Shown here piece by piece: positions 1 through 37,515 of a stretch of 64,000 nucleotides of DNA. This DNA comes from Marsupella aquatica (Eukaryota > Plantae > Marchantiophyta). A program made the translations under genes and the position numbers. The notes under the pieces were generated by a model that saw nothing but the letters and a program-made list of their open reading frames with translations, was not told where the DNA came from and made no database searches. Numbering within the stretch: the first letter of the stretch is position 1; the number at the start of each line of letters is the position of its first letter. The DNA lies in assembly GCA_973895155.1 (NCBI GenBank), contig OZ316893.1:7588963-7652962 (forward strand), given 5' to 3'.

Positions 1-1296
1 ACCTATGCTAGTGCAATTGCAGCTGCCTCACAACTGGCATTACAGAATGCCATTGCAGCCCATGCTGCTACTCCTACTACTTCCCCTCCTACTCCAGTTC
101 CTACCACTGCGCCAGTTACTCCCACTATCTTGGCACAGGCTACATCAGGCATTTCTCTCACTATTGATTCTCCTGCCTTTGCTGATCCAGTGGCTGAGTT
201 TTTCCAGGTTCTTGAATTGGAATTCCCAATCAAGAGTGCTGACAAAATCATGCAGTTGGCTACCTTTGTGAGGCAGCGCGATGAAACATTAAAGATGATG
301 TATCACCGGCTTCTCAAGCTGAAAGAGGACACCCAAAGCATCACTGACCTGGAGGTTGCGCATTGCTATTGTTGTGCATTGGAGGGCACACCAGCTCTCC
401 ATTCGCAAGTGTTGCAGCAAGTATTCTCAGAGTTTGGAGATAGCTACACATTGCTCAATGTCTATGACACTACTGAGAAACTTGAGTTGGTCCATGCACA
501 TTATGAGGCCAGTATTGTGCGTCCACCGCGATCTAGGTACCAGGCTGCTGCCCCTACACTGGCCACCCCTTCCCATGTGCCATAATATGGTTCCAAGACC
601 AAGGCAGCACATGCTGCTTTCATGCTGCCATCTTGCAACTACTGTGGTAACCCCAATCACAAGGCTAATGAATGTGATATTGTTGTTGAGGATCTGTCTT
701 GTGATTTTTGCGGGAAAGTGGGTCACTTGGAAGCAGTTTGTTTTGCCAAATTCCGAGAGTGGAAGCAGCTATGACAATAGGCCACTCATCCTGCTCCTAT
801 TTCCACTCCCCCACCAGCTAGGAGGGCTCCTACTGCATCAGTTGCTCCTCCTTCCAGTGGCAAAGCACCCAGTGCCAACAAGTTGCCCAAGCAGCAACAG
901 AAGCAACCAGCTCAGAAGGAGGCTCACAATGCACAGGCAACTCAACTCCAGTCTCTAACTCATGAGGTTGAGTCCTTGCGTGCCCAACTTGCCAATATCA
1001 AAGGCAAGTCAATTGCCTCTGCTGGTCCTTCTCAACCGGCTGGTCACGTGCAACCCATCCCTGGCTCAGGCACCACTGACAGTTCAGCACCTCTACCCCG
1101 CTCTTTCTATGGCTTGTCATTTGATGCTCATATGGGTGAGTGTGTACTGTCCTCTGCTACACAGCCTGGCCTTACGGCAGAATTTTCAGATTCATTCTGC
1201 CCTTCCTATTTTGCTTACCAGCAGGCCAGTGCTGCTTCCTGTACTACTCCCACCCGTCGCATTAAACAGGCTGATGGCTTTGCGCTGGTCCTATGA
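1..1296 (+). pseudogene. gag-like ORF with two CCHC zinc knuckles, interrupted by premature stops
   Basis: Frame 1 is open from position 1. CNYCGNPNHKANEC at 634-675 and CDFCGKVGHLEAVC at 700-741 both fit CX2CX4HX4C. In-frame stops at 583 (TAA), 772 (TGA) and 778 (TAG). Confidence 0.85.
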
Positions 1297-2405
1297 CTAG
1301 AGCCAGGGGAGCTCGGGCTGTCATGCCCCAATCCTTTCAGCCACTCACACTTGCTGAAGAGCGCACCTTGTTGGCGAAGGGGGAGGGAGCTGCAGCTACA
1401 TCCATTCCACCACCAGTTGCTGCTAACATTTCACAGGGAGTTGTTTCTCCTGAGCTGCTTGAGCATTTCACCTCCGATGTGGCACAAAGGATTCTTACAA
1501 CTCCACTTTTCAGTTGCCATGATTTACAGCTGGATGCTAGAGCTATCATCAGAGCGCTAGAGGGCTCACTGCATTCTTCATCAGCCCCTGTGACACCGGT
1601 TTTGGAGGTCCAATCTCATGTACATACTGGACCTTCTTCTTCTCCATTACATGCTTCCACTGGTTTGGCTATCCCAGTACCAATTTCTAGTGGTAGCGAT
1701 GACAGTATTGTTACAGATTGTGTGACCAGAGCTACACTGGATTCTGGTCATGCTGCTCCATCTTTCCTGACTATGCTGTTGAGTGGAAAGACCGTGGATA
1801 CTAACTCCCTTCACAAGGTACCTCATCATCTGCCAAAAGTGGTGCCTAGCGACAGGACTTCAGTTTCCACCACCATTGCCATTGTTGACAACAGGAATTC
1901 AGCGGTCAAGTTGGAGGGTCACACTCCTCAGGTGGTCATGCTAGACACAGGCGCTCAACCAGTGATATTGGGCATTCAGTTTGCCAAGAAGATGGGACTG
2001 CTGACTGATCATTTATAGCAATCCAGGTGGCATATTCGGACTGCTAGTGGCACTGTGGAGGATGTGCTGGGTGAGAGTTCTACTTTACTCACTCTCACTT
2101 TTAATGGAGGTACAGATCAGGAACTGCATTTCCCAGTCAAATGTTTGGTTACCAATGCCACTATGTATGATGTGCTCATTGGCCAGGAGGCTTTGTTCCC
2201 ACCAGGTTTTACCATTGACAACTGGCATGAGCATGCATACTACAGAGTTGATTGGCATACTGATGGCTCACACTTGGGCTACATTCCACTTGATTTGCAT
2301 GGTGCCCATACACCTATGGCTCACCACTGTGTGTTGAAAGCAGTGCACACAACTACCTATGTCAACCACCCATTGCAGGATTGGATTGAGGAGGATGACG
2401 ATTAG
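1293..2405 (+). pseudogene. Retroviral-type aspartic protease region of pol
   Basis: VMLDTGAQPVILG with DTG at 1944-1952, flap IRTASG after the TAG at 2016, and C-terminal DVLIG at 2169-2183. Same frame as the downstream MTase. Confidence 0.85.
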
Positions 2406-2609
2406 GTGGCTGCTGCACATGCTGCTGCACGTATAGCAGCACTTTCCAGCAACGTGGATCATCAACCAGAGGTGGTACAACGGCTCCAAGCAGCCCATGG
2501 ACCTTTGGTGGCTGCATTGCGCAAGTTTGAAGACCTTGGGCAGCACAATGGACAGCCAATAGCCCCAATCTTGAGCGCACCAGTTACATGGACTCCTGCT
2601 CCAGATGGC

Positions 2610-3560
2610 CTTACATTGCTTGAGCTTTTTGGTGGCATTTTTACAGGCTTGGAAGCTCTCCTACAGTCCGGCATGGTGGTGAAGCAGTACATCTACGTGG
2701 ACATTGATCCAGGTGCAAGGCAAGTGGCTGAATCCCATTTGCTGGAATTTTCAGAACAATTTCCCTAGCAGTTTCCACACAATGCATGGAAGTCTGCATT
2801 TTCTTTCTTCCCTCCAGATATCCAGCTTGTCCAACACCGACACTTAACCCTTCTTGGTTCCCTTGATTTGATCATAGCTGGTTGGGAATGCCAAGGGTTT
2901 TCAGCTGCTGGTCATGGTGCTAGATTGCATGACTCTCGTTCTGGCCTTTTCACAGCATTGGTTCAGATTCTCACCTGGGCTCAATCCCTTTATCCTGCTG
3001 TTGGTTATATCATTGAGAATACTCCATCTCAGTTTGACCAGCGTCCACATGTCAAAGAGGATTTCAGTGTGGTCCAGCACTACTTGGGACCACCCCTTCT
3101 CATTGATGCAGTGCACTGTGGTTCTTATGCACATCATCTTCGTAACTTTTGGACTAACCTTGCACCACCTTCCTTGTTGGAGTTGGCTCTTCACCACACA
3201 TCCAGGGACACTAACCTCATAGTGGACCAGATTTTGGATCCTGACAGTTCTTGCCAACAAGTTATACGGCAAGAGCTAGCACCTTGGTATCCAGCCAATA
3301 CCATTGGACAGCCCCGTGCTGCTTGGCCTACATTTGTATCCTTTCCAGGTGCACATGCTTTTCAGGGTGATGGTCCTGGCCTGGTTTATCGACATTCTAC
3401 CGGTACATGGGATGAACCTAGTCCTAAGGAGAGAGAACGGGCTATGGGCTTCCAACCCGGTACTACAGGTCACACCAAAATCACCAGGTTGGCCAGGAAT
3501 GCTTTACTTGGCAGGGTAATGGATCTCAATGCTCTCACTTGGCTTCTGGTCACTTGCATC
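2610..3560 (+). pseudogene. DNMT3-like DNA (cytosine-5) methyltransferase domain embedded in pol
   Basis: Motifs in canonical order: I LTLLELFGGIFTGL (2610-), II YVDID (2694-), III DI (2817), IV DLIIAGWECQGFS (Cys at 2889), V SGLF, VI IIENT (3009-), VIII AHHLRNFWTNL (3129-), IX ERERAMGF (3429-), X RLARNALLGR (3486-). One internal TAG at 2766. Confidence 0.9.
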
Positions 3561-3954
3561 CTTTTTCAGATGTACATTCATTCAACATCTGGAGTTCCAG
3601 CCCTACCACTCCATGGTGTTGTTACATGGCATCCAGACCAGGTGCACTTACCTCTATTCAACACTCATCGCTTCAGTCCAAGTGTTGGGGGAGGAGGTCC
3701 CTTGTAATGTGGCTGACATTATTTCTGAGTTTCATGGTGTGGACCAACCCAGATCAGCAGGTACAACAGGCCTTGGAGAGGCCTCATCACCTTATCAGCA
3801 GCATGCTAGCAGCTTGGACAGTGGAGAGGCTAGCACTTCTGGTTCTTCAAGCATGAGTACATCAGGTCCTATACCTAGTGTTGCCAACTACACATTCATC
3901 ATGGGCAACCACCTGAGTAAAAGACAGAAGGACCGGACTGTAAAGACTGAATGA

Positions 3955-5330
3955 CGAGCTGGGCGGAGCTGATGGACTGTGTGCACTCAGGTCTGGGATT
4001 TCTTGGTTGTCGTTGCGGATTGATTCTGCTGCTGTGAACTACTGTCCTTTAACCTCCTACGTGGAGGTCTCGATTACTATCTTTGAAGCCAAACCTTGAC
4101 TCTTTAGGCACTCTAACGATGACGATCTAGAGCTTGCTTAGATTAGGGTCTGCCTTCATCTTTTGCTGTCCCATCAAGGTACTAGGGGTTTTGCGCAGAG
4201 GAAGTGCTTGGGGGTGACCGTAAGGATGGGCTCGTCAAGGAGGTGACTAATCAAGGCTTGCTTGCAACCGTGGACTTCTATCTGGACCAGAGCGAAAAGA
4301 CGTGTCTGGACTTACTTACGGGGAGCTGGTTGCGTGATTAGAGTAGTAGATGTGAAGCTTCGTAATCCTCTCGGACCTCGCGGGGCTTTCGAAGATCCTT
4401 TTCACTTGGAGTTTGAGCTGTGAAGGTGCCGGATAGATGCTCCATATCTGTGATTGGACAAACTATTGGGAACTCTGACTTAGCCGAATACTGCTATGCG
4501 AATAAGGAAAACGGGATCGAATGCATGGCACTGTTGACATTGCTGACGACGTGTGATTCCTAGGGTAGAATGCCCTTGCTTGACTCAACGTGGCTTAACT
4601 CTGCGGGGCAAGGTGAGCTTGCGTCTTCCTCTTTCTTTGCCTGATTCACAAATTTTCTTTATTCTTCTGAGCTTTGGAGCGAATCCCTTTCCGACGGCTG
4701 CCAATAGAAGATGCCTTTGGTCCTCTACGTTAATTCTTATTGTTCTACTTTCCGTTACCGGTGGGGTCCTGATTGTGAGGCTCTATGGCGGGGTACCGGG
4801 GGGAAATTACTGGTGGCGGCCGTGGTGACCTCATGAGATACCCATCCCTCAGGAGGGATGCGGAAGGTGGTGCTGGGCACTGGTCGAATTTGGGCTCCCG
4901 TGCTGCTGAGAAGGGGGCACAACATCTAGCAGCTGATACGAGGCACTCAGAACGGACTGATGTTACTTTCTCTCATCAGGATGTTAGATCTGATGGAATT
5001 CCTGAGGGGAGATTGAATAGCAATCAGGTGATTACTGCTTCCACTTCTGCGGAACGTACCTCTGGCACCAATGCGGACGGATTTTCACGTTGCCCTGCCC
5101 CTATTCCGGATGAGAACACGATAATGGACTCTCTGGAGGGACGGGGCAAGGCGGACTACGGGGAATACTTCCGCGAGGACATCGGCAAAAGGGATGAAGA
5201 AGATATGCTTATTGATCAATCGATCGATGCTACTCCACGTTTGAATGTCCCTGGCGCTCCTAACAGACCCTCTACGAGGGGACCTTTTGCATCTTCATAG
5301 ACCCCATTGTCTAGGAGACAAAGAATGTTT
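3955..5330 (+). other. Unassigned degenerate coding-like segment, probably TE-derived
   Basis: Long near-open frames broken by TGA/TAG, a Cys/His cluster (HC.HC...ECPC near 4525-4580), a possible GT-AG intron from ~4613 and the 171-aa ORF 4785-5300. No family recognised. Confidence 0.3.
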
Positions 5331-5433
5331 GCTTTCAATTAATTGCTATTAATTTTGCAATAAGTTTAATGAGTATGACTCGGATGTTCTGTCCCACATG
5401 TTGTACATTTTCTAGAAGTCTGCTACCTCAACT

Positions 5434-6960
5434 ATGCCTTGTGTTTCACAATGCCAGAATCAATTGACAACAATGAGGCATGAACTTCAACTTAATATTG
5501 CATTGGAGTCCTCGGACAATTCATCTGATGTAGACTCACTTGATCTATTAGTGGGGTATGTGGAGGCAAAGGATGTTGGCAATGTGTCCACTCTATCACT
5601 GTCAGACAATGACCTGCCTATGGATTCTAGTTTGGACTCAGAGGATTCTCAGGATGCACATGAGTTTGAAGAATTTAGTACTACTCCTACTTCCCTGTTT
5701 GAATTGCACTTTGTGATGCACAACATCAGGTTCTTTATTCCTAGACATGTCACCGGTAAGTTAGATGAGTTTGCTACCAAGTTCTTCCATAACTTGCCTG
5801 CCACATTGTTCAGGCAACTTACCAGGATGGACAAAGCACATTCTTTGGCTTAGTTGACAAAATAGAATCCCACCCCATATTTGAGAACCATTCTCATCAT
5901 ATCCAGGCCCCCGTCATTAGGTAGCTAGCAGTTTGTCTGGACAGACTAGGCCATGATGGTGATGGTAATGGGGCCTGTATCAACCACTTGATTCCAACTT
6001 GGGGAGTAAATTGTGGTAGCCTTGTCAATTTTAGCAAACAATGTTTGCTGGCTTTGGAGGCAATCATGCATGGCTGAAGAAATTGCTTGGCCAGACATCA
6101 ATGACAGAGTTCACATATCATAAGCATTTGCAGCACATAGCTTCCAAGGATGTGTAGGACTCATTAATTGATGGGTCACTTATGCCATTGACTCAACGGC
6201 CAAAGGAGCATGGAGAATGTTACTATGACAGGAAGGGTTGGTACTCCATCAACACTCAAGTTGTCTATGACCATAGGTGGAAAATCATTTTCATGTTCTC
6301 AGGTATGCATATTTCACTTACTATTCATATTTTAAACTGCACATTATTATTATTACTGCTCTTACTAGTACTTGAATTTGTGGCTGACCCAACATAAACT
6401 ATGAATTCTTTCAGGAATGCCTGGATCTTATGGTGACCTCACCAGCATTAGGAGGTCTCCCTTGTGGCATTATTGTAACCAGGTTGATAGGAATGTCTTG
6501 TTCCAAGAGGGCAGTAATTATTGGGTGACTTTGGCTACCTACAGGTATGCCCCCATTTAGTATGTTCCTTCAAGAGCCTGGCAGATATATCAAACAACAA
6601 AGAGGATTTCAACATCTGTGTTGCAAAATGTCGTGTCACCAATGAACAGTGTATTGGAGTTCTTAGATCTATCTCATTGGCATTCACTGAAAGAGGTGAG
6701 GGTTCAACTGAATAAAAAAAAGATTCAGTTTGGATGATTGGTTAGATGGATAGGCCTTTGTTGTAGACTGCACAATTATGTCATACGTAAGGACTACAAA
6801 TGGACTGAAGATGATCAAATGGAGGAAGTGGAGTCATTAGTACTGGACAGGGCAGACTCAATAGACAACGAGCATTAGCCAAGGAGTACCAGGCGACCAA
6901 CATCACAGGCAGGGAATGCCTTCCTAGTGCAAGTCGTGGACCATGCACTAGCATTGAATA
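5434..6960 (+). pseudogene. PIF/Harbinger (DDE_Tnp_4/HARBI1-like) transposase with one intron, frameshifts and stops
   Basis: Motifs FRQLTRMDK; LAVCLDRLG; FQGCVGLI..DGSLMPL; YYDRKGWYSINTQVV; intron ~6303-6414 (ag|gtatgc...ttcag); MPGSYGD; LLGDFGY; FNICVAKCRVTNEQCIGVLR; CRLHNY. Confidence 0.88.
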
Positions 6961-7109
6961 GAGCCCCAATATCAATGGAAACTGAGTAGGTTGTGTACTA
7001 GTAATGTTCAATGCCTGGTGGAGTGTAGTGAGCATATGTTTTATTTGGGCCATCCTCGTACTTTGCTTTTCATTTGTCTCAACTTTGATGAGAACGTTGA
7101 ATGTTTGTA

Positions 7110-9079: not shown

Positions 9080-10683
9080 ATGGGCCAACTGAGTCGGGGA
9101 TAGTGGTAGCCCCTTCATCGATAATAGCCTTGAATTCCCTAAACTGTTGCGGAGTTCAATTTTTCCTTACAAGCTCTGTCAACAATACTGTGGCTTGTTG
9201 TGCCATGATGATAATAGCCAGCTGGTGAGTCAAATCAACTCTAGCTCATGTCTCCTCTTGTTTGCGCTGAACACGTTCCCTTCTTGCCACTTCTATAGAT
9301 TGGGCATCAAGTAAAGCTTTCTTTCTAGTGGCATCTGCTTCTTTGGCCTCCTTTCGATCAGTGATTTCTTGGGCACGCCATCTGTCCTTGGCATCAATCA
9401 TTTGAATCCTAAAGCCATTCTTCCTGCTAATTTCTCAGCATACACCTCAACAAGATTGGGCCTTGACGAGGCTTGTGTGGTTGATGACCTCTTCCCCTAT
9501 CGGGGTCGTTGGGTACGGACCTTGTTCAACTGTCACAGTTGGATGAGCAGAGCTTGTGCCTTTGTTTCGTCCTTGTGTCTGTGTGGGTGCCGATGCTGGG
9601 GTGGATGCTGGAGTGGACGTTGGTTCCTTGAAAATAGGTTGAGTTGATGTAGGGGTGATTGGTGGTCACCTGGTGTGCCCAGGAAGGACTGATTCATCAA
9701 CCTTGTTGTTGAAGCTCGCAGGACGGTCAGAGTCATTGACCTTGTCATTGGATAGAGTTTGAGCAAACTCAAAATTTTCTTCACCTACTACATACAACTG
9801 AAAGGGAGGGCTAAATAAGTTGTGCTCCTACATAGCAAAAGTTGTAGGAATTGAGGAATTGAGGAATTTAAAGTTTGAACTTACGGAGTTTGTTATAATC
9901 GAGGTCATCATGAATTGCCACTTCAGATTGAGGCATCTTGTCATCCTCAGATCTTTTGTTAACATACAATTCACGGTGACCTGGCAGACCAACAACAATT
10001 GTGTTGGGAGGTGAAACATTCACTCTCTCCCCATAAATGGCATGCATCCGCTCAAAATGAGGGCAAATACTTATCGGCCAGAGTAAGACCCTGCCTCAAC
10101 TCTGCATTTGTCAATCTCGGGGGGGTCACTTCCATGGAAGTGGCATATCATGTGCGACGAAGTATAGGGCCATTTAAATGGTTTTGGCGGAAGACTTATT
10201 AAGTATTCTATGGAAATATAGGGTTGTTTAATTGCAAAATGCATACGTGTCATCACATGATTGGTGCTGTACAACTTTATAGAAAGTGACTTAGGGGGGT
10301 CATAAATGACCCAAACCGTCGCACGTGATGTATGACCCTTCATATAGTGACCCCCCCGAGTTGTCAATCCAGCACCAGAGTCTCGCTTTATCGCCAGTGC
10401 CTTCTTGTGTTTTTTGATGGATGAAATGATGAAACTGTTTGCCAAGGTTATCGCCTGTTGTCACAAATTTGGGGAACCCGCCGTCATGCACGTCGATGAG
10501 CATTTTTTTGAACACCATCTTCTTTGAAGGATGTTTATCGGTGACAGACGGGCGACTACTGGTCCCATTTAGTATGGCAAAGTTCTCAGGTACTTCCAAC
10601 CAATCAACAATGTGAGCGAGATGTTGTGGCAACAACTTCCGATTATCTCCGCCTGTGGCCATTGTTGAAACTGGAAACACCAT
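9080..10683 (-). pseudogene. Harbinger companion Myb/SANT-like DNA-binding protein
   Basis: N-terminal IVDWLEVPENF; GAGLTNAELRQGLTLADK after removing the MITE; CPHFERMHAIYGERVNV at ~10015-10065; charged coiled-coil-like C-terminus near 9100-9400. Confidence 0.7.
10116..10360. mobile_element. 245-bp MITE inserted in the Myb-like gene
   Basis: Perfect 15-bp TIR CTCGGGGGGGTCACT (10116-10130) / AGTGACCCCCCCGAG (10346-10360). Flanking duplication TTGTCAAT at 10108-10115 and 10361-10368. Confidence 0.92.
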
Positions 10684-11169
10684 GTCGACTTTGGTTTTCA
10701 GGAAGTTGAGAGTCCAGAATCACAACTTCAACAAGTGAATAGCTAGCGGGGTCAATTTGGATAATGGACAGGCTGATTGTTCAGCTTCAAAATATCCTCT
10801 CTAAACGTCATCTTTGCTAATATTGATCCTCAACAATTCTGATTCAATGAGATCCGCGCAATGAGCGAGGGAACTCAATTTTCAAAGTTGCAACAATTGG
10901 CAAATGCATTCATGGAGCTTCAAAACATTTGCGGCGTGTTCAAAGAGTTTAGCGAGGGAACTCGTCCCAAAATGTTGTTGTTCATTTGTTTGAGTTAACC
11001 ATGGTTAACTCAAAACCCATTGGCATTTTCACGGTGACCCGTCTCATGATTCACTACCCCAAAAAATGTTGGCCCGCATGAACCCTGTCGCGGTGGGCCT
11101 GACTGAATCTTGGGCCGCCCGTGTTTGAATTTTTTTTCATATGTGAGACACCCTACTAAGGTAAGCTTA

Positions 11170-18600: not shown

Positions 18601-21600
18601 TTTTCCGAACTTCTAGTATTACGTGACATCGTTTGTACCAATTTATATCCTGACAGCTAAATTTGGTTCCCAGTTGCAGCACCGATTGTGCCACTTGAGG
18701 CCCTTCGCCCTGATGTGCCACGACCATTTGGAAGTACTGGTACTGTTGTGCGCCCAGGATGGCTTCCTGCAGAACGTGATGGACTTTTGGGAAGTGGGGG
18801 AGTTCTCCACAGAACTTACACAGGAAATTTCCCCACACCGAGTGCCCTCAGGGCTGGTCCAGAACGTCAAATGAGCATGGGGCCACCCGAGCGTCAAATG
18901 AGCCTGGGGTTACCAGAGCGTCAAATGAACATGGGGCCAGCGGAGCGACAAATGAACCTGGGGCCAGCGGATCGGCAAATGAGCCTGGGACCACCAGAGC
19001 GTCAAATGAGCATGGGATTACCAGAGCGACAAAATAGCTTCGGACGTGGAGTTGCCAGAAACACTGAGCCGTATCATCCATCTCGTCCACTGAAGGTGAT
19101 GATTCATCACTTTATGTACTTGATGCTATCTGGCCGTAAATGGTACAAACAACACATTGGTGGGTCGCATTCGAGTTCTGAAATGCTGCTGTTTTTGAAT
19201 TTCAGCAGGGACCTACTTTTGGACGACGAGAAGAGACTGATTTTGTCAACGATGAAACGTTTGGCTCCGAAAACAGTACAACAGATGATCGATCTGAGCA
19301 GGAGCGAAAGCGCAGAGGTATGATTTGCTATGGCATCTTATTTTTACTCTGCGGGATAATTTGGGAAATTTACTCTGTTTTAACAATCCTTGCTTCAACA
19401 CAGCGAATGCTGGTACATCAGTTGGTAGCCTTTTATATTCACCCGACTGGATAGTAACTGTGTTATTTCTTCCATACTATAGTTCATGGTTGTACTTCTC
19501 GATTTTTGTGTATGGTTTAACTTGTGACGAGCTCGCAAAGTATTTGAAACTTTACAATGCACCTGCTGTAATGGCGAACCAAACTGCAGACATTCCTATC
19601 CGAAAAATGCATGTATTTTCTGTGATGGTCTTCTGCCACCCGAACTTAGCGAGAGCGCTGATCCCAGAGTGCACCAATGAATCTTGCTTTATATTATCTT
19701 GCATGTATATTATCAGAAGCTAGAACAGAAACTGTCGTACAGGCTGGTGTGGGTATTGCAACCTCACCATTGGTAGCTTTGATGGTCTGCTTGCGGAATG
19801 AAGGGAAAAATTGGCCGAATAAACTAGATGTCTTGCGCCGATACCTTCTTAGACCACCTGTATATTTGCACTCTTGAGAATTTAACAAGGTGTAGTCGTT
19901 TGTCTGGATGATCCTTTTGAGCTTCACGAAAACTTCTTACTGTTGTCACTTATCTCCTACCTGAAATGTAACCTGTACGCAGAGTCATTCGAATTGATGA
20001 GAAAAGATCATCAACGTCTACTCCAAAAGCAGCAGAAAATTCTCTCACAAAAGCATGAAGAGAGGCTGGCCAATCCAGAGTCAAATGCCAGCAGGAAGCA
20101 TGATGAGAGCGCGCTTTGGGATTCTGGTCTTTCTTCTGATGTAATTCCATCTTCTCCACCCAGGTCCCCAGAGAAAAGAGTCTCTGATTCTGAGACTACT
20201 TCAGCTTCAGTGTCGACACCTTTGGTGGCACCATCAACCCCTCGGCCGGCCATACCTCCTGGATTTGCTAAAGTCGTGCAGCACAAGCAGAGCACTCTAA
20301 AGGCATCTTCCACACAGGAGAGTCTGTTGGAGGTATGTCGACATTCGTTTGTTGTCTCCTAATGGCAATGCAAGCTTTTGGAATATTTTTCTGATGTATG
20401 TAGAGGTTTTGCTCATTGCTTTTTTTGAAACTAATGTCTGTTTGTACTCGTGTGTGCCAGGGAACCAATATGGAGGCAAACGATATTCAGAAGCAGATTG
20501 GGTTGCAGGGTGAGTCTGCAGCTTCATCTCAGGAGAAAGGTTTTGGGGATGGTCCTGTCAAAGTAACTGACAAATTGTTACTCAAACCTCAAGATTCTTT
20601 GGACAAGCCTGAAGTAGGCGATCCTTTAGTACCCAAGATGCCTGCTGAGTTGGTTTCGCTGGCTACCCCTACAGAAGCACATGATGAGATGTCACAATTA
20701 AAGCGTTCTATACCAAGGGCTGGTGAGGAGAAAGTGGACTGGGTCTTACCTACCGAAGGCAGACACAGTGACAAGAAGAAGGGGATTTCAAGCGATGAAG
20801 GGATGGAAGAGAATATTGTAATTGGTGAAGAGTACAATACTAGTCAAGAGTCGTTGCTCGACAAATTTTTTGGCAAGCCTAAATTGGAGAAAGAGTCTTT
20901 AAAAGACGGAGGGCTTCCTGTCCCTACTTTGGCCGAGGGGGTAAGTCTTATAACGTAACACCTTTAAGGTTGCTTTGAGCTACAATTTATCATTCGATTT
21001 GTACCCAGGATTTGATGTTGACGGAGTTGGTCTTGAAACGTTACAGCCCTGCAGTGTGATGTATTGTCTGGTTTGGTCACTCTGGCATTGGCCAAATCAG
21101 TACGAGTTCTGGAAATTCGATATGCGATCTGACCGTCCTATGCCTGGGGATTCTGGGTTTTCAGTCACAGATCAGAATCCCGAACGAGGATGCTTGGTCA
21201 GAAGGTGATTCAACGATGTCAAAGTTTGCGCAGTGGTTCCATCAAGAAGGTAAATTGTCAGTTTGCAAGAGTGCGGACAATCCATTCTCTCTTGTCTTTG
21301 TTGACAATTTACGGATAACGATCCCAAGTTCAACTTATGCATGAAATAATTGATAAGTTTCTTGTTAATTTTTTTATCTTCGCAAGAGTCGTAATTTGGT
21401 GGCTCATTGAAAAGTTTTGAGCACTTTATCCCTTGAGAATCCACCTGGAGGTAGAACTCAGGAGAATTTGGAGCTCGAGTAGATTGGATTGTGCCAAGTC
21501 AAGCAATGTTATGTCAGTTGCACACCTGTAATTTCTCCTGATAGTTCTTTTTTGAATTGTTTGTGCCGCAGAGAAGCAGTCGAAAGACGGTGCAGGAGTG

Positions 21601-24327
21601 TCACCTGATATGCTGTCATTGTTACAAAGTGGTGGTATAGCGAAGGGGCCTTCAAATTTACCTTCAGAACATGCTCTGTCTGGTCAAGAGGGTCCACCAA
21701 AATCGAACCGTGTAAATGTGCCCCGGAATCATGGCCGGATCGTGCCGATGCCATCTGGACCTTCGCTGGAGGATATCGAGAAGGGTCTAAAAGAAAATGC
21801 GAGCTCTAGTCAAGAACAAGCTGTTACCAAGGTGCCAAGTTTTATGGGTACCCTGTCCTTGAAAATTCTAGATGTTGAACCAAAGGGTGATGCTATGAGT
21901 GGTGTTTTTGGAGAACATTCTCCTGTTGGAAAATTTAATTTTCGGCCTCTCCCATCCCAGAGACAATCTGCGTCGAAATCATCCCCTGTTTTCCTAACTT
22001 GTGAGGATATTGAGCAATCTATGCTAGCTGAGGCTGGGACGACTGTCGAAAAAGTCCTACCCAACTTAACTCGACCTTCACGGGCACGTGGCCCGTCAAA
22101 TGGAAAGGATGGACAGGCTGCTGACAGTGCGTCTCGCCATCTTTTATCTCTTCTGCAAAAAGGCGCATCTGGAGGGAAGCTTTCCCCAGGGAAGAGTTGG
22201 TCCGGTCACGCAGAGCCTAGTGGGGCTGCAGGAAAGACTCTTGTCGATCGCTACCATGATGCCGATGACAACGACCTGAGTGAAGCTAACAAGAAATCTC
22301 CCAGCGATAATGCTACTCTGGAGGCTTTGTTTGGAAAGGCATTTATGAGTGAATTGAGATCAGTAGAGGCACCGCTTTCAGCTAATGCTAATGCGAGTGA
22401 CTATCTTGGCAGCATGGACGGACCACAGGCTTTGCCTGGTATATACCCGATCAGCAGGCAGTCGACTGGGAGGGCAAATAATGCACCTGCCAACACCAAT
22501 GTCTTACAGGAGTGGCCAGGTACATTAGGGCCTTTGGCCAGTATGGGTTGGATGGATAATAATGTACTCGAAACTACCAGACTTGGAGCTGTGAAAGATG
22601 TAACTGGTCCTAATACAAAGGTCAATCATTTTGTGGCTCTTGACAAAGAGGATGGTCGCACAGTAACCTCATCGGGGCACGGGTTCTGGGGAAATGGCGT
22701 AAACTCCCATACATCTGATGGAAGCCTTCCAATCAATACCGGTGTTGGGAATAAGGGCAGTTTTGTTAGTAGTGCTGAAAGCACTTCATTTAGGGTAGGT
22801 GATCTTACAGGGAACTCTGTGAAAGGTAAAGGGCATCTGAGTAGGGTTCATAATTCTGATTTAGATATTCGTAGCGGTTCTAACGTAATCGGAGATGGGA
22901 AAATCTTACCATCAGGAAACTTCGTATCTGGGCAGTTGAGGGGTTCAGAAGACAATTCTTTGCCTGTGAGTCCGGGGAATGTTCGGTCTAGTGACGAGCC
23001 TGTCATTGGTCCAAGTGCAGCCCTTGATTCATCTGGACTACCACAAAATTTCAAAGAGGATGGCTTGGCTAAAAGGGTAGGAGACATTTCCACGGCAATG
23101 TTTGGGGTGGGAGACCTCTCAATCACGAGGGGGGAAACTAGTGCAGGTGTTAGCCAGGGCATTGATGGTTTTCTCTCAGCGTCACGGAAGATAGATCGGA
23201 TGGAGACTCTGGAGGATATTCTTGCTGGTGACAAGATAGGTTTAGGGGATACTGGAAATTCTGGAAGTGATAGGAAGATGGCAGATTCCTTTTCAGATAC
23301 GTTGGCTTTTATTGGAAAAGCGAAGGATGCGAATTCAAGAGTGTCACCTATTCCGACAGGAGGCTTACCGGAGCAAGCCAACCCCGGCCTGTCACGGTCA
23401 AATAGCAATTCCATTAGGTTTAAGAACAACGTTGGACCACTGCAGCTTACTTCGCAGTTCAACGCTTACCCAGTTGGCTCCCCTCTTCAGCATCAGCAAT
23501 CTATTGGAACATTGTACAGATCCGATTCAGCAACGTCGCTTTCACTTCAACGCCAACAACAGTCAATTCCTGTTCAGCATCACTTGCAACAGAGTCCAGG
23601 TTCTGGGATGCCAATGTTCCCTCCGCAGCAATTCCACCCTCAGCCTGGTCTACCTCAACAGCAACAGCTCCTGGGTCGAACTTTCAGTAATGGCGGCTCA
23701 TTGGAGTTTCCTCATCTCCCATTTGGTCATGCACCTTCAACTCCACCAAACAGGCAATTATCAGCGGGGCCTATGCATTTCCCACCAGTACCACATGGAC
23801 ATCTATCTCCACCTGGGGCTTATCCTCCCATGGGACATATGGGTCCTACTCCTAATCACTTTTTGCCTTCCCCTCAGATGCCCCAGCGTGGACCAAACAT
23901 GTCTCCAATGGGTGACGGGCATATGTTTATGTCTGAACAGTCTATGCATGATCCACATGGTCTTGGTTCCAAGCCGGGTTCTCAGCAAGGCCCATCTCTT
24001 TTTCCTCTTGGTGGCCATGCTTTGCCGTCAGGACAAGGACCTATGTTCCACCAGCCTCTCCCCCACAATCTGCGAGGACAACAGAACCAGCTTCTGCCGG
24101 GACCTTCTCCATGGGATCTGCGTTCGTATTCTTCTGAATTGATGAGAACTTCGAGTAAGGGCCAAGAGTTAAGTGGTTTTGTCAATGGTAATGGAGGGGG
24201 AGCCAATTCATTGGACAGGTGGTTTGGTATGGAGCTGTCTCGAAATGTCTCTGGCATACCTACCCCTGGTCTCTTGCAAGTATCACCCCATGTGTTGGAT
24301 GCCGATAGTAAGGTGCGATTTGGATAG
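15686..24327 (+). CDS. CBE1: CBE1-like eIF4E-binding protein (Conserved Binding of eIF4E 1 family), multi-exon
   Basis: Exons read with consistent phase: 15686-15768 (tentative start, alternative ATG 15659), 16929-17027, 17298-17387, 17654-17970, 18680-19095, 19206-19317, 19983-20332, 20461-20940, 21165-21249, 21572-24327. Family motifs: YTRELLL (eIF4E-binding YxxxxLphi), DGLLGSG, EPYHPSRP, NDETFGS..ERKRRESFELMRK, IPPGF, SKFAQWF, LTCEDIEQS, ASRHLLSLLQKG, TLEALFG.AFM.EL, LDRWFGME. Confidence 0.85.
18859..19047 (+). repeat. Coding tandem repeat, 7 x 27 bp (PERQMS[M/L]G[P/L])
   Basis: PERQMSMGP-PERQMSLGL-PERQMNMGP-AERQMNLGP-ADRQMSLGP-PERQMSMGL-PERQNSFGR within the exon at 18680-19095. Confidence 0.92.
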
Positions 24328-27036: not shown

Positions 27037-29386
27037 CTAAACGTTGGCTTTGCCGTCAGTGACCATGGAGATGAGCTCGGGCTCCGAGTCCGAGGAGTGT
27101 GGGCGAGTGTAAGTTGGGGTGGTCAAGACGAGGCCCGGAGGATGGCGCTCATCCCCAACCACAGGCTCGTTGAGTTTGCCGCTGTTTGTGATAGAGCACT
27201 TGTTCCGGATCTCCCCTTTGCCCCCCGACGAAATCTGACTCATTTTCACGAACGACTTCGCGAATTGGGTGAAGAAACCGCTCTGGTTATTCGCCCAGGA
27301 GTTCACGAGACCCCAGGCGGTGGAGTCCTGATCCAGGTTTTGGTCCGACGCTAAGAGTGCTCCTCCGCTTGGAAGGTTCTTGAAGTACTGGTTGTCAAAA
27401 TGGTTCGGGGAGTAGAAGTCCAATCCCGTGGAGCCAGAGCCTGGAGGCGAGGGACACACATTGCTTTTGAGGTAGCCCGCGTAACCAGAATTCAACTTCG
27501 GGTCCACAGTCGGTATGATGCGTCCGCTGAATGCTCCGCAGTGTGCCACTCCCAAGGTGTGTGCACCTGTAGCAGCACAAGATCCAAGTTCTTCATATCT
27601 CTTCCCGGACTTCATCGAGGGAAACCTTTCAGATTCGAACTTTCAGAATCTATCCAAATGACTCGTTCAACACTCAATGCACATTGAAGAAGGGAGACAA
27701 AAATGTTGAAAAAGTTCCCAAAACCCAGGACCGACTGACACAATGAGAGTGAGGTAATAGTGATGGAGGTCAATTGGAAGTTCCATGCTTAACAATGACG
27801 TCGTGCTGTGAAGGAACAGTGAGATGTGCATCGGACAACTTGAGTATCATGTACCTGCAAGAGCGACGAGGTCGGCGGTATCTGTAAGACCCTTCTGACT
27901 GAAAATGGATTTCTGCTGGGCAAAAGTGGTTGAAGGCCCAGGTAAGTCCGTGGTTTGTGTGCTGAAGGCCAGAGCATCTAGTCGCCCTAGAGGAACACTG
28001 AAGGAGGGTCCTCCGCTCTGCACAGGGGACGAAATACCTTCTTCAGTTGGCAATAAAGCTAAGATAGCGTCAGTTTTGAAAAATTGCAAACTAAAGTTGC
28101 ATTCACACACATGCTGAACGAGGATCTCACTCACCTGCGTGACAGCCTGCTTGGCGGCGAGCACAACGATATCGGCACATGAGACGGTCTTTGGACAAGC
28201 GGCCTCGATCGCCGTCTTAATGCTATCGATAAGCTGCAGAGCGGCCGGGCGGATGGTCTGATTCGGGACAGCGTTCAGCTCGGATCCGCTGGCAAGCTTC
28301 AGAAGGATCGAAGCGTCGCAGCCCTGTCAAGAAGAGTACACAACATACAAACGCTTGAGCTAACAGAATCAGGCAATGTGGCAACTAGTAGCAACATCTC
28401 GACAACGAGGTCACACATTGTAATCGCCGAGATTCTCCATCCATTGAGCTCTCATGTTGCGAATTATCTCATGAATGACGGAGCTGAGCGAAGCAGCTCG
28501 AAAGTCGTTGATGTCTTCCAGTGTGCATCTCCGTTTCTACCGATTGGGACGTTTCTCCTTGTCAGGGATTCCTAACCAAAATTAAATCTAGTACGAACTA
28601 CGGATGATTTATGGGACACAATCATTGTCTGCAAGCAAAACCTCGTGACAGACACTAATGCATGTCGGTCCCGGGACGCGAGGGTGGATCCGTGGAGAAG
28701 TTATGAAGACTAAGTCCGACCGTACTTCAGAAAATTACACAACTGGCACGGCAGTCCCATAGATTCAATTGCCGTTCGTTGGAACGGTGATAGGACACAA
28801 GTCGTGGGGAAGCAGTCGTAGTCGGTCGGCCAGCAAGGAAAGGCCTCGTGTCAAGCCTCTCGAGGGAAGAACAACAAGGCTTCGACATCGCATACTCTTC
28901 AATCATGGCAATGGACACCGTGGAACGGATTAATGTTGTGCCTCTCTAATGCAAGACGAAGAAGAAGAAGAAGCACAGTAGAGCCAGTCAAATTCTCAAG
29001 CTACAGCTTTGTTGATCCCATGACTGGATTCATTGGCTTGTGGGCTGGAAAGAGCTTTCGTCCAAGTCCGCAAGCGAAAATGCGAGCGATCAGACATGCA
29101 CCTGGACGAAGCAGTCATGGAAGAACAAGCGAAGGAGTCCCGCCGCAACGCCACCATCGCTCTTTAGAGCTGCAGCGACTTTGGAAGCAACAATGGTCTC
29201 AGCGGTGGCGCAGGTCCCAGCATAGTATCCCCACGCAAGCCCTTCTGCCACCGGAAGCTCCTTCTCTAGATCCGACAGCTCCGCCCCGTAATTGAGTTCA
29301 TACTGATACTCAGCAGCGCTTCCAGCGATGCAGTAAGCCAAGATAAGCACCACCGTCACTCCCCCAAACAGCCCTTCCTTCCCCAT
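27037..29386 (-). CDS. Class III secretory haem peroxidase (~388 aa, 4 exons)
   Basis: Exons 29386-29102, 28323-28135, 28017-27855, 27566-27037 with the canonical three-intron layout. Signal peptide, RLFFHDCFVQGCDAS (distal His), VSCADI, LGRLD, LAGAHTLG (proximal His), FDNQYF, GEIRNKC. Confidence 0.95.
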
Positions 29387-31064
29387 TCTCTCTCTCAGTC
29401 CCTTCAATTGAACTGAAACAGCCACCTCGCCAAAGCAAGAGCCTTCTAATCCTACCGACGACAGAACTCTTCAGCTCAGCTTCGAGTCTAATGAATGAAG
29501 GCAGTGTGAGCTTGACAGCTTATAACTTTGCATTCGGTATAGCTCAGTGCTCTCTCAATCTCATCAGTCCCCTCATCAGTCCCCTCACAGACTCACAGTC
29601 CTCCGCTGCTGCTCCCGAGGGATATCATGAGGCTATTATTAATATTATCGTAACCTAGGTAGCCCAGGTCAAACACGGACCTACTGTGAGAACTGAGAAC
29701 AGCACGCTGCCGATGATACTGATAGGATGGTGGAGGACCGGAGGTGGGTCCGATCCCGAAAAGTCGGTCCAAACCTCAGATCTCGAGCTAAACGACTCTC
29801 TATCACCATTGATTGAATTGTCCTCGCCGCCATAATGTATCATAAAGCAGCATCGCCTGTAGAACCGCACTGTAGAAGAGGATAAAATTGGAGGCACAGG
29901 CAGCATCAGCACTGCAGCAGCTTCAGGCGTCATCGTTCTGAACTGCTGCACTCACGAAGCCAATTTATGACTCTCCTAGACTCAGACTCTTCAGAGCAGA
30001 CGACGAGACTCATCCCGCAGTCCTGCCATCATTCTATCTTATCGCAGAGCGGACCACTTGCCACTGAAACTTGACAGGAGTGCGCTGAGTACAGTACTGC
30101 TCCACTACTGTGCCATTACGTTCTGCAAAGTCCGCTGATGTTTTAGTATGAAATGGTCGTCACGTAGAGTGTGGCGATCGTGTCCTCTTGCGTCTCGATC
30201 TCGACCATCCCGGATCCCCGACGATGTTGTAATTGTCGACCGACGCACCGACGGAATCGTACTTTGTAGTTTCCAAATAATCTAGTTGGGCCTCTCAAAG
30301 TTGAGTCTTTTTACCCCGGTGGCACTGGAAGCAGGCAAAGGGGGTGACCTACAGTACTCGACGTCTGTTTACGAGCAAATTTTGCATATTCAGACAGTGA
30401 GATATTGAGGCTAATCTATTAAAATTAATGTCTATGTTCATGACCAAATGAAGCGATAGTGAGCAATTTAATAGAAAATATGATATCTAGACTAAGCTGG
30501 TGAGATAGGGGGGCTTGACAAGGAACTCTCAGGCACGGATGGTCACTTTTCACCCATTGGAAAAGTGACGTCCATTGCATATGCTAAAGTCAATTAGCCT
30601 GAGCCAAAATGTGTAAGGTGCGGGGAAAATAAATGCAAGATCCTTGGTAGAAGTAGGCCAAGAGGTGGTCTATGTTTTCTATAAAAAAATCATGGCCACA
30701 CCAGAAAAGTGGACCCACTACAGTAGTTAGTGAGTTGCGAGGATCTTGACTTGTTTTCCCAGCTTGGGTCCTGAAGGACAAGTGAACTGAAGTTTTGCTC
30801 CCACATTTGAGGAGAGATTTGCTTGGTGGGGTCTCACTTGAAAGCTGTCGACTTAACAGTCCCGAAAAGTCCAAAATGACTAGGTGGGACCTCAAACCTA
30901 TGCTCGACCGGGTTTAGTATGACTTTGCCGGCCCTGCACATGCCTGACACCTTACCCTATTGTAGAACGGCAAAAATCTATGTTGGCGCGAGGGTAGGGA
31001 GAACTTATTGTGTACCCATTATTTGGACCCCACTCCAGCGCTCACGGGAGGTGAAGTGTACCCA

Positions 31065-32062
31065 TTATCTGCTTGTAATAGACATAAAGGACTTGTGTTT
31101 GGCCCCACTGTACTTATTGACATGTCTTGCAGCCTCCTCCCAAGTCTTGTATATTCCTGGAGTTCTCCCTATGGCCACTGCATACCATTTTTGCTTGGAG
31201 CAAACTCCTAGGTTACAATTACATGGTCTGGTGATTGCGCTACCGAGAAATGCACTAGGTGTAGCGCAAGGAGTAGACACTAAACGATTGGGTGGATATA
31301 TGTGGACATTTCCACGAAGCTCTTCATTGTCGACAAGCACGACTCCTTCCACAGTTGTTGGCTTAGATTCAAGTGCAGTAGGGAGTGGGCAGAGACGCTC
31401 CAACATGAGACACACAGTGCCAAAAATGGCACTAAGTGCTCCTACAAGTAACCAGAGCAATGTGTTAGGATTTACTCTTAGGTCTAGAGTTACGACTATA
31501 CCGTAGTTAAGGCTAACTTTAGTCGTAGACTTGGTTAGGTTAGTCATGCTGTGCACACTGTATAACCAAACGGTATTTGCTTGGAGAGTGGGAACTCAGG
31601 CTCCTTGTTATGGAGCTAGTTGAGAGATAGGGAGAGCTTGCGCTGTGGATGCTTGGTATGGCCGGTCGACCTAGAGTGCAATAAAGTTTGTGTGTGTTCC
31701 CGTGGACGTAGCCTCATGTGGAGGTGAACCACGTATCTCTCTGTGTCGACTCTTGTGCGTTGGATAATTCATGGGCTTGTTGTTGTGATTGTCGTCTATG
31801 CTCAACACAATGCACGACAAGCAACCCAAAATTGGTTGTCAAAATGGTTCTCTATAGCTTTTAGCCATTGAACAGTCTTCCTCAACAGCTTACACAGAGC
31901 AAGCGATGCAATGTGTAAGCAGTGCAGCCAATGCAGCTTCAACCACAAATTAACTCCTCCCCCCAGATCGCAGCATGAAGCACCGACACCGCTCCCAGCA
32001 GTCCGCAGTGCGCTAACTTCTCTCCCCAGTAGAAGTCGATGACTTCTCTCTCCAGCACGCAC
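31065..32062 (-). pseudogene. ORF with RNase H1 N-terminal hybrid-binding (Cauli_VI/viroplasmin) domain, split by a solo LTR
   Basis: KWYAVAIGRTPGIYKTWEEAARHVNKYSGAKHKSF is the characteristic HBD signature. Removing 31463-31807 plus one TSD joins ORFs 31802-32062 and 31065-31556 in frame (..VACRAL|LWLLVG..). Confidence 0.8.
31463..31807 (+). mobile_element. Solo LTR (Ty1/Copia-like), 345 bp
   Basis: Termini TGTT...AACA; 5-bp TSD CAATG at 31458-31462 and 31808-31812; internal TATA-like and AATAAA signals; CCCGTGGACGTAG...GAACCACGTA motif typical of plant Copia LTRs. Confidence 0.9.
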
Positions 32063-33626
32063 CTAGTTCACTTCTCTCCCCGGCCAGCACACAGCTCAAT
32101 CACTTCTTTCCCCAACACGCAGCTCAATCGAGAGCTCAATCAGCTTCAGGCGATCACCGTTTCACTTTTCCAGTCGAAGCTCTCCTCATATCATCGACCA
32201 CATCACTCTGTACGATACTCACCCTCTCGCAGCCCAGCCCTGAAGCGTAGCGCAGCTTCAATCAATCACTCTTGATGATCAGTAATCCTCTAGATCCTCT
32301 TGATCAGTGGAGCGCAATTTTGACTCTTGACAATCCACCACAATGTATCAACATTGGGTTCTCAATCAATGGCAGTTGACGTTTTGGTTAGGAAGTCCAG
32401 GGCCTCGCCTCCCGTGAGTGGTGCAGTGGGGTCTTGCCTCCCATGAGTGTTCCAACGGGTACACACTACACAGGTCCTGCCCTCCCCCCCCCAACGTAAA
32501 ATTTTCCCGTTCTCACCTGGGTATGGTGTCAGAAATCTGCAGGGCCCGGCAAGTTCTTACTAAACGGCTCCACCTACGTTTGAGGTCCCACCGAGTCATT
32601 TTGGACTTTTCGGGACTTGTTAAGTCGGCAGCTTTCAAGTGAGACCCCACCAAGAAAATCTCTCCACATTTGAGTGGATAGGAAAGCATCTCAGAGAGTG
32701 AAAACAATTGAAACTCCACCCTCCAAGTTCTTGGAAAGCCTCTCTAAGGAAGTGCAGGGGAGTCTGGGTACAAGAGTCACCAGCTATTTACAAAGCAAAG
32801 CTCGAACAGTCGCACTAGTAAATTACTTAATTAAACCAATAATAAATGGACACCATGATGGTCACCACCTATTTACAAGCAAAGCTCGAACAGTAACATT
32901 GAGTAAAGTACTTCAACCCATAATGAACAGTCTAGAGGTGGGAGTATGATGGGGCTATATTGTCCCAGAGTCAAGTGGTCCGTGAGGGAAAAGTCCCACC
33001 TCCAAAGTTCCAAGAGCGTGAGTCACACTGTACTTCAGCTTGGGACCAGGGTCGCGTCGCCAAACACATTCCAGTCAGCTAATTTTTATAGCCAAAAAAT
33101 TCGCCAAACCCTTCCTTGGGATTAGGTACTGTAGATGAACAAAGAGAAGTTTTGACAAAGAAATATAAACATTTGCCACATGCTTAGGTAACAGAAGTGT
33201 CAGGACCACTCCTGAGAGTTGACTGTATAGGCAGGCAAGCCCATGCCAAGCCACTGTTGGGCCAGTGTCCTTCCACAAAAATGTACTTGATAGCCAGTTT
33301 CATCCCACTTACATAGTTACATGTACTTGACCACCAGCTCGTCCTCCTGCAAACCTATGTACCTGTAGCAAGTAGTTGAGCAGTACATCCGTTTGGAAGG
33401 ATGAAGGACTTCCATTCAGCAAATTACTTGCATTCCCATGTCAGCAAGACTTGATATGGTTAAGGTGTTTCTTATATGGTTTTACTTTTCCTCACTTCTT
33501 AAAGGCTGTGGTTCAAACTAACTTGCCAAATCTTCTGATAGACATCCTAGACTTGTTGCCACCTGATTCTTATGTATGGATCCAAGGCAACACACCTTTG
33601 GAGTGGGGCAAGAGATGGTTGCCCCC

Positions 33627-33854: not shown

Positions 33855-34529
33855 TTGCCCCCTCTTGAGGCATGCAACCATGAGATCTGCCAAATCTTAT
33901 GACAGACATCCTAGACTTGTTGTCACCCGATCCTTAGGGACAAATCCCGAAGTGCTCGCCAGAATTACACCTTGGGCGTGGGGCCTCCCATACTGAGACT
34001 TAGAACCATGAGATTGCCATGGTAGCTACTGGCAATCGACCTCAAGTACAAGTCCTGAAGTCCTGTACCTCAAGTGGTGTACCTCAAGTACATCCACCGT
34101 ACTGTCCTAGTCTAGTACGTGCGAATGATGCTACAGTAATCAATCCGTGCTTTGATTCAGCTCTAATAATACTCTACAAATTTCACTAGTTTATAATACT
34201 GTGAGATTCCAAATCGGCACAATCATTATCCGGAAATAGTATGTACGAAGGTTTTGTAGAGAAGTACATTAGCTTAGTTTTGTCCTGGAGGACCGCAATC
34301 CCGATCGTGCGATGAGGTGATGAGGTGATGAGATGATGATCATCCACGTCTGCGCGGTCCCCTTATTTACATGTCCGCATTGGTTATTACCCACTTGTCC
34401 GTCTCATCTACGGTGGTACCAAACGCTCATGTTTGCTAACGAATACACTGTTGACATGTGGATTGATCGACGCTCGACGAGAGCTGAGTGTCCGTAAGCA
34501 AGTCCTGTACTATAAATGTGCTTTTTCTG

Positions 34530-34714
34530 TTTTACATTTTCGCTTACAGAAGCGAAAGTTAAGCCCACATGAACCTTTTACATTTTAGCTTACATAAGCG
34601 AAAGTGAAGCCCAAATGAACCGTTTTACATTTTAGCTTACATAAGCGAACGTGAAGCCCACATGAACCCTTTACGTTTTAGCTTACATAAGAGAAAGTTA
34701 AGCCCACATGAACC
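34530..34714. repeat. Minisatellite, 4 x ~46 bp
   Basis: Unit TTTACATTTTAGCTTACATAAGCGAAAGTKAAGCCCACATGAACC. Confidence 0.9.
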
Positions 34715-37289: not shown

Positions 37290-37515
37290 GAGAGCAGAAC
37301 TGAAGTAAGGGTGAGGGTGAGTAGCATGGAACACCGTGACTCTAACTGAGCACAACAGAAAGCAAGGGTGAGGATGAATAGCGTGGAAGACCGTGACTCT
37401 AACTGAGCACAACAGAAAGTAAGGATGAGGGTGAATAGCATGGAATCCACTCTAGACCGTGACTCAAACTGAGAGCACAACTGAAAGTAAGGGTGAGGGT
37501 GAATAGTATGGACTC
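37290..37515. repeat. Minisatellite, ~4 x 57-65 bp
   Basis: Unit AAGTAAGGGTGAGGGTGAATAGCATGGAA..ACCGTGACTCTAACTGAGCACAACAG. Confidence 0.85.

Follow-up and report, generated by a model that had tools for sequence, protein, structure and literature searches.

A DNMT3-type cytosine methyltransferase in the Gag-Pol of a Ty3/Gypsy retrotransposon family from a liverwort

Positions 1–3934 of a 64-kb stretch of Marsupella aquatica DNA (contig OZ316893.1, positions 7,588,963–7,652,962 of the forward strand; the whole stretch is hereafter called the window) belong to a Ty3/Gypsy retrotransposon family that carries a DNMT3-type cytosine methyltransferase (DNMT) within Gag-Pol; they hold the 5′ part of one copy, in a state of decay. 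Of the identity of this element we are nearly certain. The family conserves the DNMT as part of Gag-Pol, and we consider it probable that this enzyme methylates the freshly made DNA of the element, either before insertion or in the course of it. The copy in the window is dead and truncated, with six stops, two frame switches and one catalytic Arg lost. Its value lies in the family rather than in this copy: it adds a liverwort host, and with it a new land-plant member, to the lineage of the algal element KnitGypsy-Dnmt3.

Anatomy, relatives and host of the element

All coding features of the fragment lie on the plus strand. The gag region occupies 1–1284 in frame 1, is interrupted by stops at 583, 772 and 778, and has its 5′ end before base 1 of the window. 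Its bases 4–1284 are 53% identical (tblastn) to residues 83–491 of CAM6101866.1 (P0024), a 1549-residue Calypogeia fissa protein in which gag, protease (PR), DNMT and reverse transcriptase (RT) form one open frame colinear with the fragment. The two zinc knuckles reported by the original prediction, which had been made from the letters of the window alone, are present as CX2CX4HX4C motifs at 634–675 (PF00098, E = 1.8e-5) and 700–741 (read from the sequence, with weak matches of zf-CCHC type). Reading then switches from frame 1 to frame 3 at 1284–1305, where P0005, P0019 and P0024 are a single open frame. Frame 3 (~1290–3685) was translated with X at stops 2016, 2403 and 2766 before the Pfam search; in this read-through a retropepsin and a C5 methyltransferase share one frame, as had been claimed. 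The retropepsin spans 1905–2195 (DTG at 1944, stop at 2016; PF13975, E = 4e-7) and the DNMT3-like methyltransferase 2610–3575 (PF00145, E = 2.4e-5, above the curated cut-off; stop at 2766 inside), while the stop at 2403 falls in the linker upstream of the DNMT. Identity to P0024 is 64% over 1305–3680. A second switch, from frame 3 to frame 1, is placed at 3680–3690 by comparison with P0024 and leads into a linker rich in Ser and Gly, followed by the start of the leader that precedes RT (3688–3936; 42% identity to P0024 residues 1305–1374). As the reading frame of P0024 stays open from Gag into RT, both switches represent decay.

Homology ends at 3934–3936, which corresponds to P0024 residue 1374, about 28 residues short of the point near residue 1402 where the RT match of that protein begins; position 3954 is merely the next stop codon beyond the end of homology. 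A step in sequencing depth and loose contig ends coincide at 3933–3936, none of the contigs listed spans the junction at 3934 with 31 bases to either side of it, and the sequences may have been joined there by assembly. RT, RNase H (RH), integrase (IN) and PHD finger gave no tblastn match on either strand of the window, no long terminal repeat (LTR) was found within it, and the 3′ half of the element is missing. The predicted placement of the methyltransferase between protease and RT is thus borne out by the fixed order in relatives, described below, and not by the window, which has no RT.

In a metagenome scan at least 521 of at least 599 pattern matches were confirmed, and the best 80 loci were analysed. 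We treat these as peat-moss-like because one of them, L003, is 85–94% identical over PR and DNMT to Sphagnum magellanicum KAH9539057.1. Some insertions recur in several samples, and the 77 DNMTs comprise 59 distinct ones. PR lies upstream of the DNMT in 73 of the 80 loci and RT downstream in 69, with 10 of the 11 misses at contig ends; the full order gag-knuckle-PR-DNMT-RT-RH-IN-PHD was read in 25 of the 80. The best match of the family RT is Ty3 RT (E = 4e-62), and the relatives carry rve and Integrase_H2C2 domains, that is, a DDE integrase. Behind it stands a PHD finger with best matches to WSTF, KMT2D, KDM5 PHD1, ATXR5 and BAZ2B, most of which we take to be readers of unmethylated H3K4. Only one of 78 DNMT matches (loci plus window) is a stop-free single frame: most copies of the family are dead. 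A scan of viral contigs returned seven pattern matches, none of which was confirmed, and the ESM Atlas held generic DNMT and RT clusters only.

The organism was placed by a 923-codon host exon outside the element (21556–24327, plus strand), which shares 82% identity with Calypogeia fissa, 55% with Marchantia polymorpha and 50–51% with Riccia and has a weak partial match in a moss, Ceratodon. Because of the 82% identity to Calypogeia we place the contig in a land plant, as predicted, and its host is leafy-liverwort-like. Three sequencing runs carry the unique flank without differences, at depths of ~12, 80–110 and 70–120. In the same runs the summed contig depth over 1–3900, which is not a copy number, is roughly 100–1000 times that of the unique flank and falls at 3934; such depth shows a large family. 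The window copy differs from other copies mainly by T/C and A/G exchanges, the pattern of methylation-driven decay. Among the data sets listed for the window none is of RNA, which argues neither way. The methyltransferase gene is thus neither single-copy nor unlinked to gag and protease, it matches PF00145, and the contig is neither algal nor a contaminant, the three points on which the original prediction had staked itself.

The methyltransferase domain: family, residues and selection

In the window DNMT, motifs I–X follow one another in linear order; the domain is intronless and lacks the permutation of DRM enzymes, in agreement with the original prediction. Motif I lies at 2619, the catalytic Cys at 2889, the motif VI Glu at 3015 and the His/Arg of motif VIII at 3135/3141. 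The earlier statement that all C5-methyltransferase motifs are there holds for their order and needs amending at two motifs: the first Arg of motif VIII is replaced by His, and motif IV reads Glu-Cys instead of Pro-Cys. DNMT3 had been named as the closest family, and the top PDB sequence matches are indeed all DNMT3A/B/C, ahead of M.HhaI, with the three motif matches quoted at that time present in the alignment. When 38 family DNMTs were combined into a profile, DNMT3A (E = 2e-24) and DNMT3B (7e-21) scored ahead of DRM-type enzymes (5e-13 to 5e-9), M.HhaI (4e-9) and DNMT2 (4e-3). The AlphaFold model of the only stop-free locus domain (pLDDT, the model's own confidence score, 95) has a DNMT3A–DNA complex as its best fold match, with TM (template modelling) scores of 0.72/0.84. 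The DNMT3 assignment of the family is thus a ranking by profile and fold; the trees described below contained element sequences only.

Key residues are well kept in the relatives. Among 77 loci the catalytic Cys and the motif VI Asn are each retained in 75, and the first Arg of motif VIII, His in the window, is Arg in 55; departures at such positions are nearly all of the deamination type. The catalytic Cys and the motif VI Glu are invariant across the 38 family members, most of them 31–43% identical to the first, and the Gly of the S-adenosylmethionine (SAM) loop and the motif IX/X residues are invariant or nearly so. Glu-Cys at motif IV is shared by the window and 72 of the 77 loci, and 158 wider relatives comprise 82 with Glu-Cys, 37 with Pro-Cys, 6 with another pair and 33 unmatched. 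The state of this motif switches about 10 times over 93 tree rows, and because of this we regard Glu-Cys as tolerated.

Comparison of the window with L003 gave ratios of nonsynonymous to synonymous divergence (dN/dS) of 0.212/2.5 (0.08) for the DNMT and 0.204/2.15 (0.09) for PR, with dS near saturation. For polymorphisms present in at least four of the 59 distinct copies the corresponding pN/pS is 0.11 (13 nonsynonymous to 37 synonymous), against 0.61 for singletons. Over all pairs the Ka/Ks of the DNMT is 0.33, a value that includes post-insertion decay. The DNMT values of 0.08 and 0.11 fall below 0.2, the Ka/Ks limit by which membership of the KnitGypsy-Dnmt3 lineage was judged. The DNMT is under purifying selection as strong as that on the protease, and we think it quite probable that it is an active enzyme in live copies.

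Descent of the family and structure of its ends

At E ≤ 1e-30 the family DNMT profile collected 313 clusters (50% identity); at 1e-10 the number rose to 1003, the weaker of which may include other DNMTs. We distinguish a DNMT between PR and RT (slot-1) from one between RH and IN (slot-2). Among the best 150 representatives the DNMT lies between RH and IN in 68, next to IN in 20 more, before RT in 4 and behind PR in 9 more; the remaining 49, too short to tell, show no neighbouring domain and were left out of the trees. The DNMT tree was built on the core of the domain only, since the flanks differ by slot, by a quick search that included no bootstrap and gave moderate deep support. Slot-1 rows fall on one side of a single branch both in this tree (17 of 108 rows) and in the RT-RH tree (5 of 52), at Shimodaira–Hasegawa-like likelihood ratio (SH-aLRT) supports of 93 and 99, respectively. 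Named slot-1 members are Klebsormidium nitens GAQ93235.1 and Closterium spp. (4 of 10 looked up); among ten RH-DNMT-IN proteins looked up, one was named, from Scenedesmus sp. The DNMT-core row nearest to the window is liverwort P0024 (77%), followed by Sphagnum-like rows, an order that vertical descent would predict. One protein, P0007, has its DNMT before RT yet groups with slot-2 rows. It was left out of the slot-1 group, and when it is counted the slot label needs two changes; its DNMT reached the front slot by an independent second move. In another, P0177, a Tudor-like domain is added behind the PHD finger. By these trees the window family is the bryophyte branch of the KnitGypsy-Dnmt3 lineage and not a separate land-plant acquisition. 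That lineage sits inside a much larger clade, mostly with the DNMT between RNase H and integrase.

For KnitGypsy-Dnmt3, de Mendoza et al. (2018, PMC5890265) describe an acquisition by the K. nitens lineage. As described there, the element has in common with the window family an intronless, unpermuted Dnmt3-type domain in Gypsy Pol and purifying selection, and its DIRS-like repeats, in the order A-coding-B-A-B, recur in the Sphagnum-like relatives. The Klebsormidium PR-DNMT protein GAQ93235.1, which by species and domain order we take to be KnitGypsy-Dnmt3, shares its side of the DNMT tree with the window domain, although its motif IV is Phe-Pro-Cys where the window family has Glu-Cys. The window family has a land-plant host and a high summed depth, whereas 'fewer copies' are given for K. 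nitens; and where that article has a K. nitens-specific acquisition, we find a clade of 313 clusters at the stricter threshold with two DNMT positions. Its abstract, results, discussion and figure legends mention no PHD finger, self-priming or target duplication for KnitGypsy-Dnmt3. Found in liverworts and peat mosses as well, the lineage dates the acquisition to before plants colonised land and contradicts a Klebsormidium-specific origin.

Other systems resemble the family in part. SymbioDIRS-Dnmt3 and SymbioLINE-Dnmt of Symbiodinium are likewise described as retrotransposon-encoded C5 methyltransferases, and SymbioDIRS combines a Dnmt3 in Pol with A-coding-B-A-B repeats, as in the Sphagnum-like copies (PMC5890265). 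DIRS elements use a tyrosine recombinase, whereas relatives of the window copy have a DDE integrase, a protease and 4-bp target duplications; with rve and Integrase_H2C2 present, the family does not belong to DIRS/PAT/Ngaro. Self-priming Gypsy elements of the Tf1/Sushi type include the plant Tcn1 clade, reported from mosses with no tRNA primer site and with predicted self-priming; Tcn1 has a chromodomain and ordinary LTRs, in contrast to the PHD finger, DNMT and split repeats found here (Neumann et al. 2019, PMC6317226). Troyka was rejected as a split-repeat Gypsy relative: it is reported with CG...CG ends, a 3-bp duplication and a CX2CX8-10HX4C knuckle, in animals only (PMC12440569), and our family has TG...CA, 4 bp and CX2CX4HX4C, in plants. 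Host PpDNMT3a/b show that bryophytes also possess an unpermuted DNMT3-type catalytic domain of their own, similar to that of the element (Yaari et al. 2019, PMC6453930); host DNMT3 genes, as described for K. nitens (PMC5890265), are multi-exonic and stand-alone, unlike the intronless Pol-borne domain.

A literature search, with most subscription papers and Repbase outside its scope, found this element type for algae only, with no liverwort or moss report and no report of a self-priming or circle-opening reading for KnitGypsy-Dnmt3-type elements. In their passages on KnitGypsy-Dnmt3, PMC12344493 and bioRxiv 10.64898/2026.05.21.726589 cite it for 'streptophytes' and name no land plant, and a text search of one supplement file of the former gave no match; the data sets of both could hold bryophyte copies. 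Tools that search for paired LTRs would miss split-repeat elements, which may explain why these went unnoticed.

Repeat order was read in the Sphagnum-like relatives, the window fragment and the liverwort copies being seen without their ends; by homology, and from the same repeat order reported for KnitGypsy-Dnmt3, the window family would have the same ends. The original prediction spoke of an LTR retrotransposon. A retrotransposon it is, although with no LTR in the window and, in relatives, with A-coding-B-A-B (A ~290 bp, B ~175 bp) in place of paired LTRs, which sets it apart from canonical elements with two identical LTRs. The canonical TG...CA ends and 4–6 bp target duplication are nevertheless found in the relatives: copies begin TGTC and finish GACA, and 15 insertion sites inspected by eye have a 4-bp duplication that is perfect in 8, has one mismatch in 3 and is absent in 4 (3 of them with damaged ends). 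At the 34 loci with 3′ repeats we read B-A-B in 18, B alone in 14 and B-A in 2. The first B (B1) begins directly after a G-run, the polypurine tract; its junction with the second A (B1|A2) is CA-NN-TG, and the end of B is a run of CG-rich 15-bp units. Repeat similarity is higher within than between copies (0.90 vs 0.83 for A, 0.91 vs 0.88–0.89 for B). For short motifs of a tRNA-type primer site after A1, none of 17 loci matched. The last 15 nt of A1 pair with a segment inside repeat A; the best such site lies 31–32 nt behind a TATA-like hexamer at 19 of 25 loci, and the pairing reaches p ≤ 0.05 against shuffles in 18 of 25, two of which may be one insertion.

Taken together, split repeats, TG/CA ends, 4-bp duplication and self-priming point to a circular intermediate that would be opened within the LTR to integrate. 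The unit duplicated by reverse transcription would then be B+A, from the purine tract to the self-priming site, with the integrase attachment sites inside it. A symmetric two-repeat circle was rejected: it predicts A-B-A-coding-B as often as A-coding-B-A-B, and the former was seen in 0 of 29 loci, none of which has a B before the first A. The short A-coding-B form (14 of 34) is not the product of a one-repeat circle, as L027 (short) and L010 (long) occupy the same site. Moreover, in L010, L056 (/L068) and L069, B1 lacks one 15-bp CG-rich unit that is present in B2. This speaks against the simple two-repeat circle, because that model predicts B1 = B2 at insertion; standard LTR replication does not explain the difference either. 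Inverted pieces of the family's own 3′ end adjoin several copies (L017 15046–15363, L016 6342–6659, L055 2866–4296, L031 9282–10887 and L075), as if copies inserted near or into each other.

Possible role of the methyltransferase, and neighbouring features

What a retrotransposon gains from carrying the very enzyme class that silences it is treated as a question in the discussion of PMC5890265, from which the only Gypsy example in print comes, that of one alga with an enzyme silent in yeast. For the present family we propose that the RNA would start in the first A and prime itself, that reverse transcription would yield B-A-coding-B-A, and that the ends of this cDNA would be joined and the molecule opened by the DDE integrase at CA-NN-TG inside the repeat. 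Present in the particle as part of Gag-Pol together with RT and integrase, the DNMT would methylate the cDNA, and the PHD finger may steer the complex to H3 tails unmethylated at K4, a reader–writer pairing as in animal DNMT3. Methylation of the cDNA by the DNMT is plausible, and cleavage from the polyprotein and packaging, as supposed in the original prediction, are putative steps; that cDNA is the main substrate of the DNMT we rate as an even chance. A broader picture is tentative: an old green-lineage Gypsy clade of hundreds of families, intact in leafy liverworts, that would combine circle-opening integration, an active DNMT and an H3K4me0-type PHD finger, write its own methylation and maybe methylate bryophyte genomes de novo. 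Open frames in a sequenced liverwort make these plants suited to the study of cDNA methylation, PHD targeting and circle-opening integration.

Several observations weigh against methylation of the element's own copy by the route proposed. Among Gypsy-borne DNMT3 enzymes none is known to be active: according to PMC5890265, KnitGypsy-Dnmt3 gave no methylation in yeast, a result its authors call inconclusive, human DNMT3B being negative there as well. The related SymbioDIRS-Dnmt3 enzymes, which methylated CG de novo in that system, speak for the proposal. Motif IV is Glu-Cys, most copies are dead, and the tree, of moderate deep support, holds no host DNMT3. CG depletion was rejected as a sign of self-methylation, because the adjacent Harbinger-like relic (5401–7000), which has no DNMT, is more depleted (CG observed/expected 0.13) than the element (0.21). 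To these are added the absence of A-B-A-coding-B and the unequal B repeats.

An unlikely alternative has the DNMT, brought along with integrase and PHD finger, working on the chromatin of the host where the element inserts and not on cDNA in the particle; it would initiate methylation near the new copy, as self-limiting silencing or as a heterochromatic niche. DNMT and PHD finger are found together in both domain orders, the commoner of which puts the DNMT directly before integrase (the 68 of 150 representatives, and 20 more next to IN), and in moss the host DNMT3b is reported to work de novo in heterochromatin (PMC6453930). The streptophyte order, however, places the DNMT between PR and RT, far from IN-PHD, and the few DNMT molecules of a particle would presumably meet cDNA first.

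It is also improbable that the DNMT persists for a structural or DNA-binding role, for example to hold the CG-rich internal attachment site, with weak or dispensable catalysis. Glu-Cys at motif IV, the inactivity of the Klebsormidium enzyme in yeast (PMC5890265) and the CG-rich units at the end of repeat B would fit this explanation; the (near-)invariance of catalytic Cys, motif VI Glu, SAM-loop Gly and motif IX/X in 38 members is what an active enzyme predicts. Finally, the DNMT could be a retrocopy of a host DNMT3 that landed by chance beside a gag-protease fragment, or the contig could be algal or a contaminant. Either might be suspected from a window that has neither RT nor terminal repeats and whose 3934 junction is bridged by no contig listed. 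This explanation, of negligible probability, is refuted by the same order in one open Calypogeia frame, a PR ahead of the DNMT in 73 of 80 loci, 42–64% colinear identity along the whole fragment, the liverwort host exon on the same contig, and the element at 100–1000 times the depth in the very runs that carry the difference-free flank.

The window holds further features. A different, low-copy repeat, CG-rich (observed/expected 0.74), occupies 3936–5400 and begins right at the element break; in one run it has another upstream neighbour. Within it, a 167-base GT..AG stretch at 4611–4777 is skipped in contigs of three runs, and the open reading frame (ORF) at 4779–5300 has no Pfam match. A decayed PIF/Harbinger-like transposase (PF13359, E = 5e-6; CG observed/expected 0.13) follows at 5400–7000 on the plus strand, and minus-strand ORFs near 10300 (within 10071–10719), which have no Pfam match, resemble the partner gene of such a transposase. 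A small unit resembling a DNA transposon lies at 30808–32668: its ORF, which encodes an RNase H1 N-terminal (Cauli_VI) domain (PF01693, E = 2e-15), is flanked by 94-bp terminal inverted repeats. Host-type genes on the minus strand are a class III-type plant peroxidase with an intron (27037–28326, PF00141) and a single-exon aquaporin (49678–50703; PF00230, E = 1e-25; CG observed/expected 1.03) with an unusual pair of motifs, NPA as the first and NPAR as the second. Degenerate tandem arrays lie at 34529–34714 (47 bp), 37291–37516 (57 bp) and 43380–44114 (19 bp), and a further one at 18835–19050 (27 bp) is coding.

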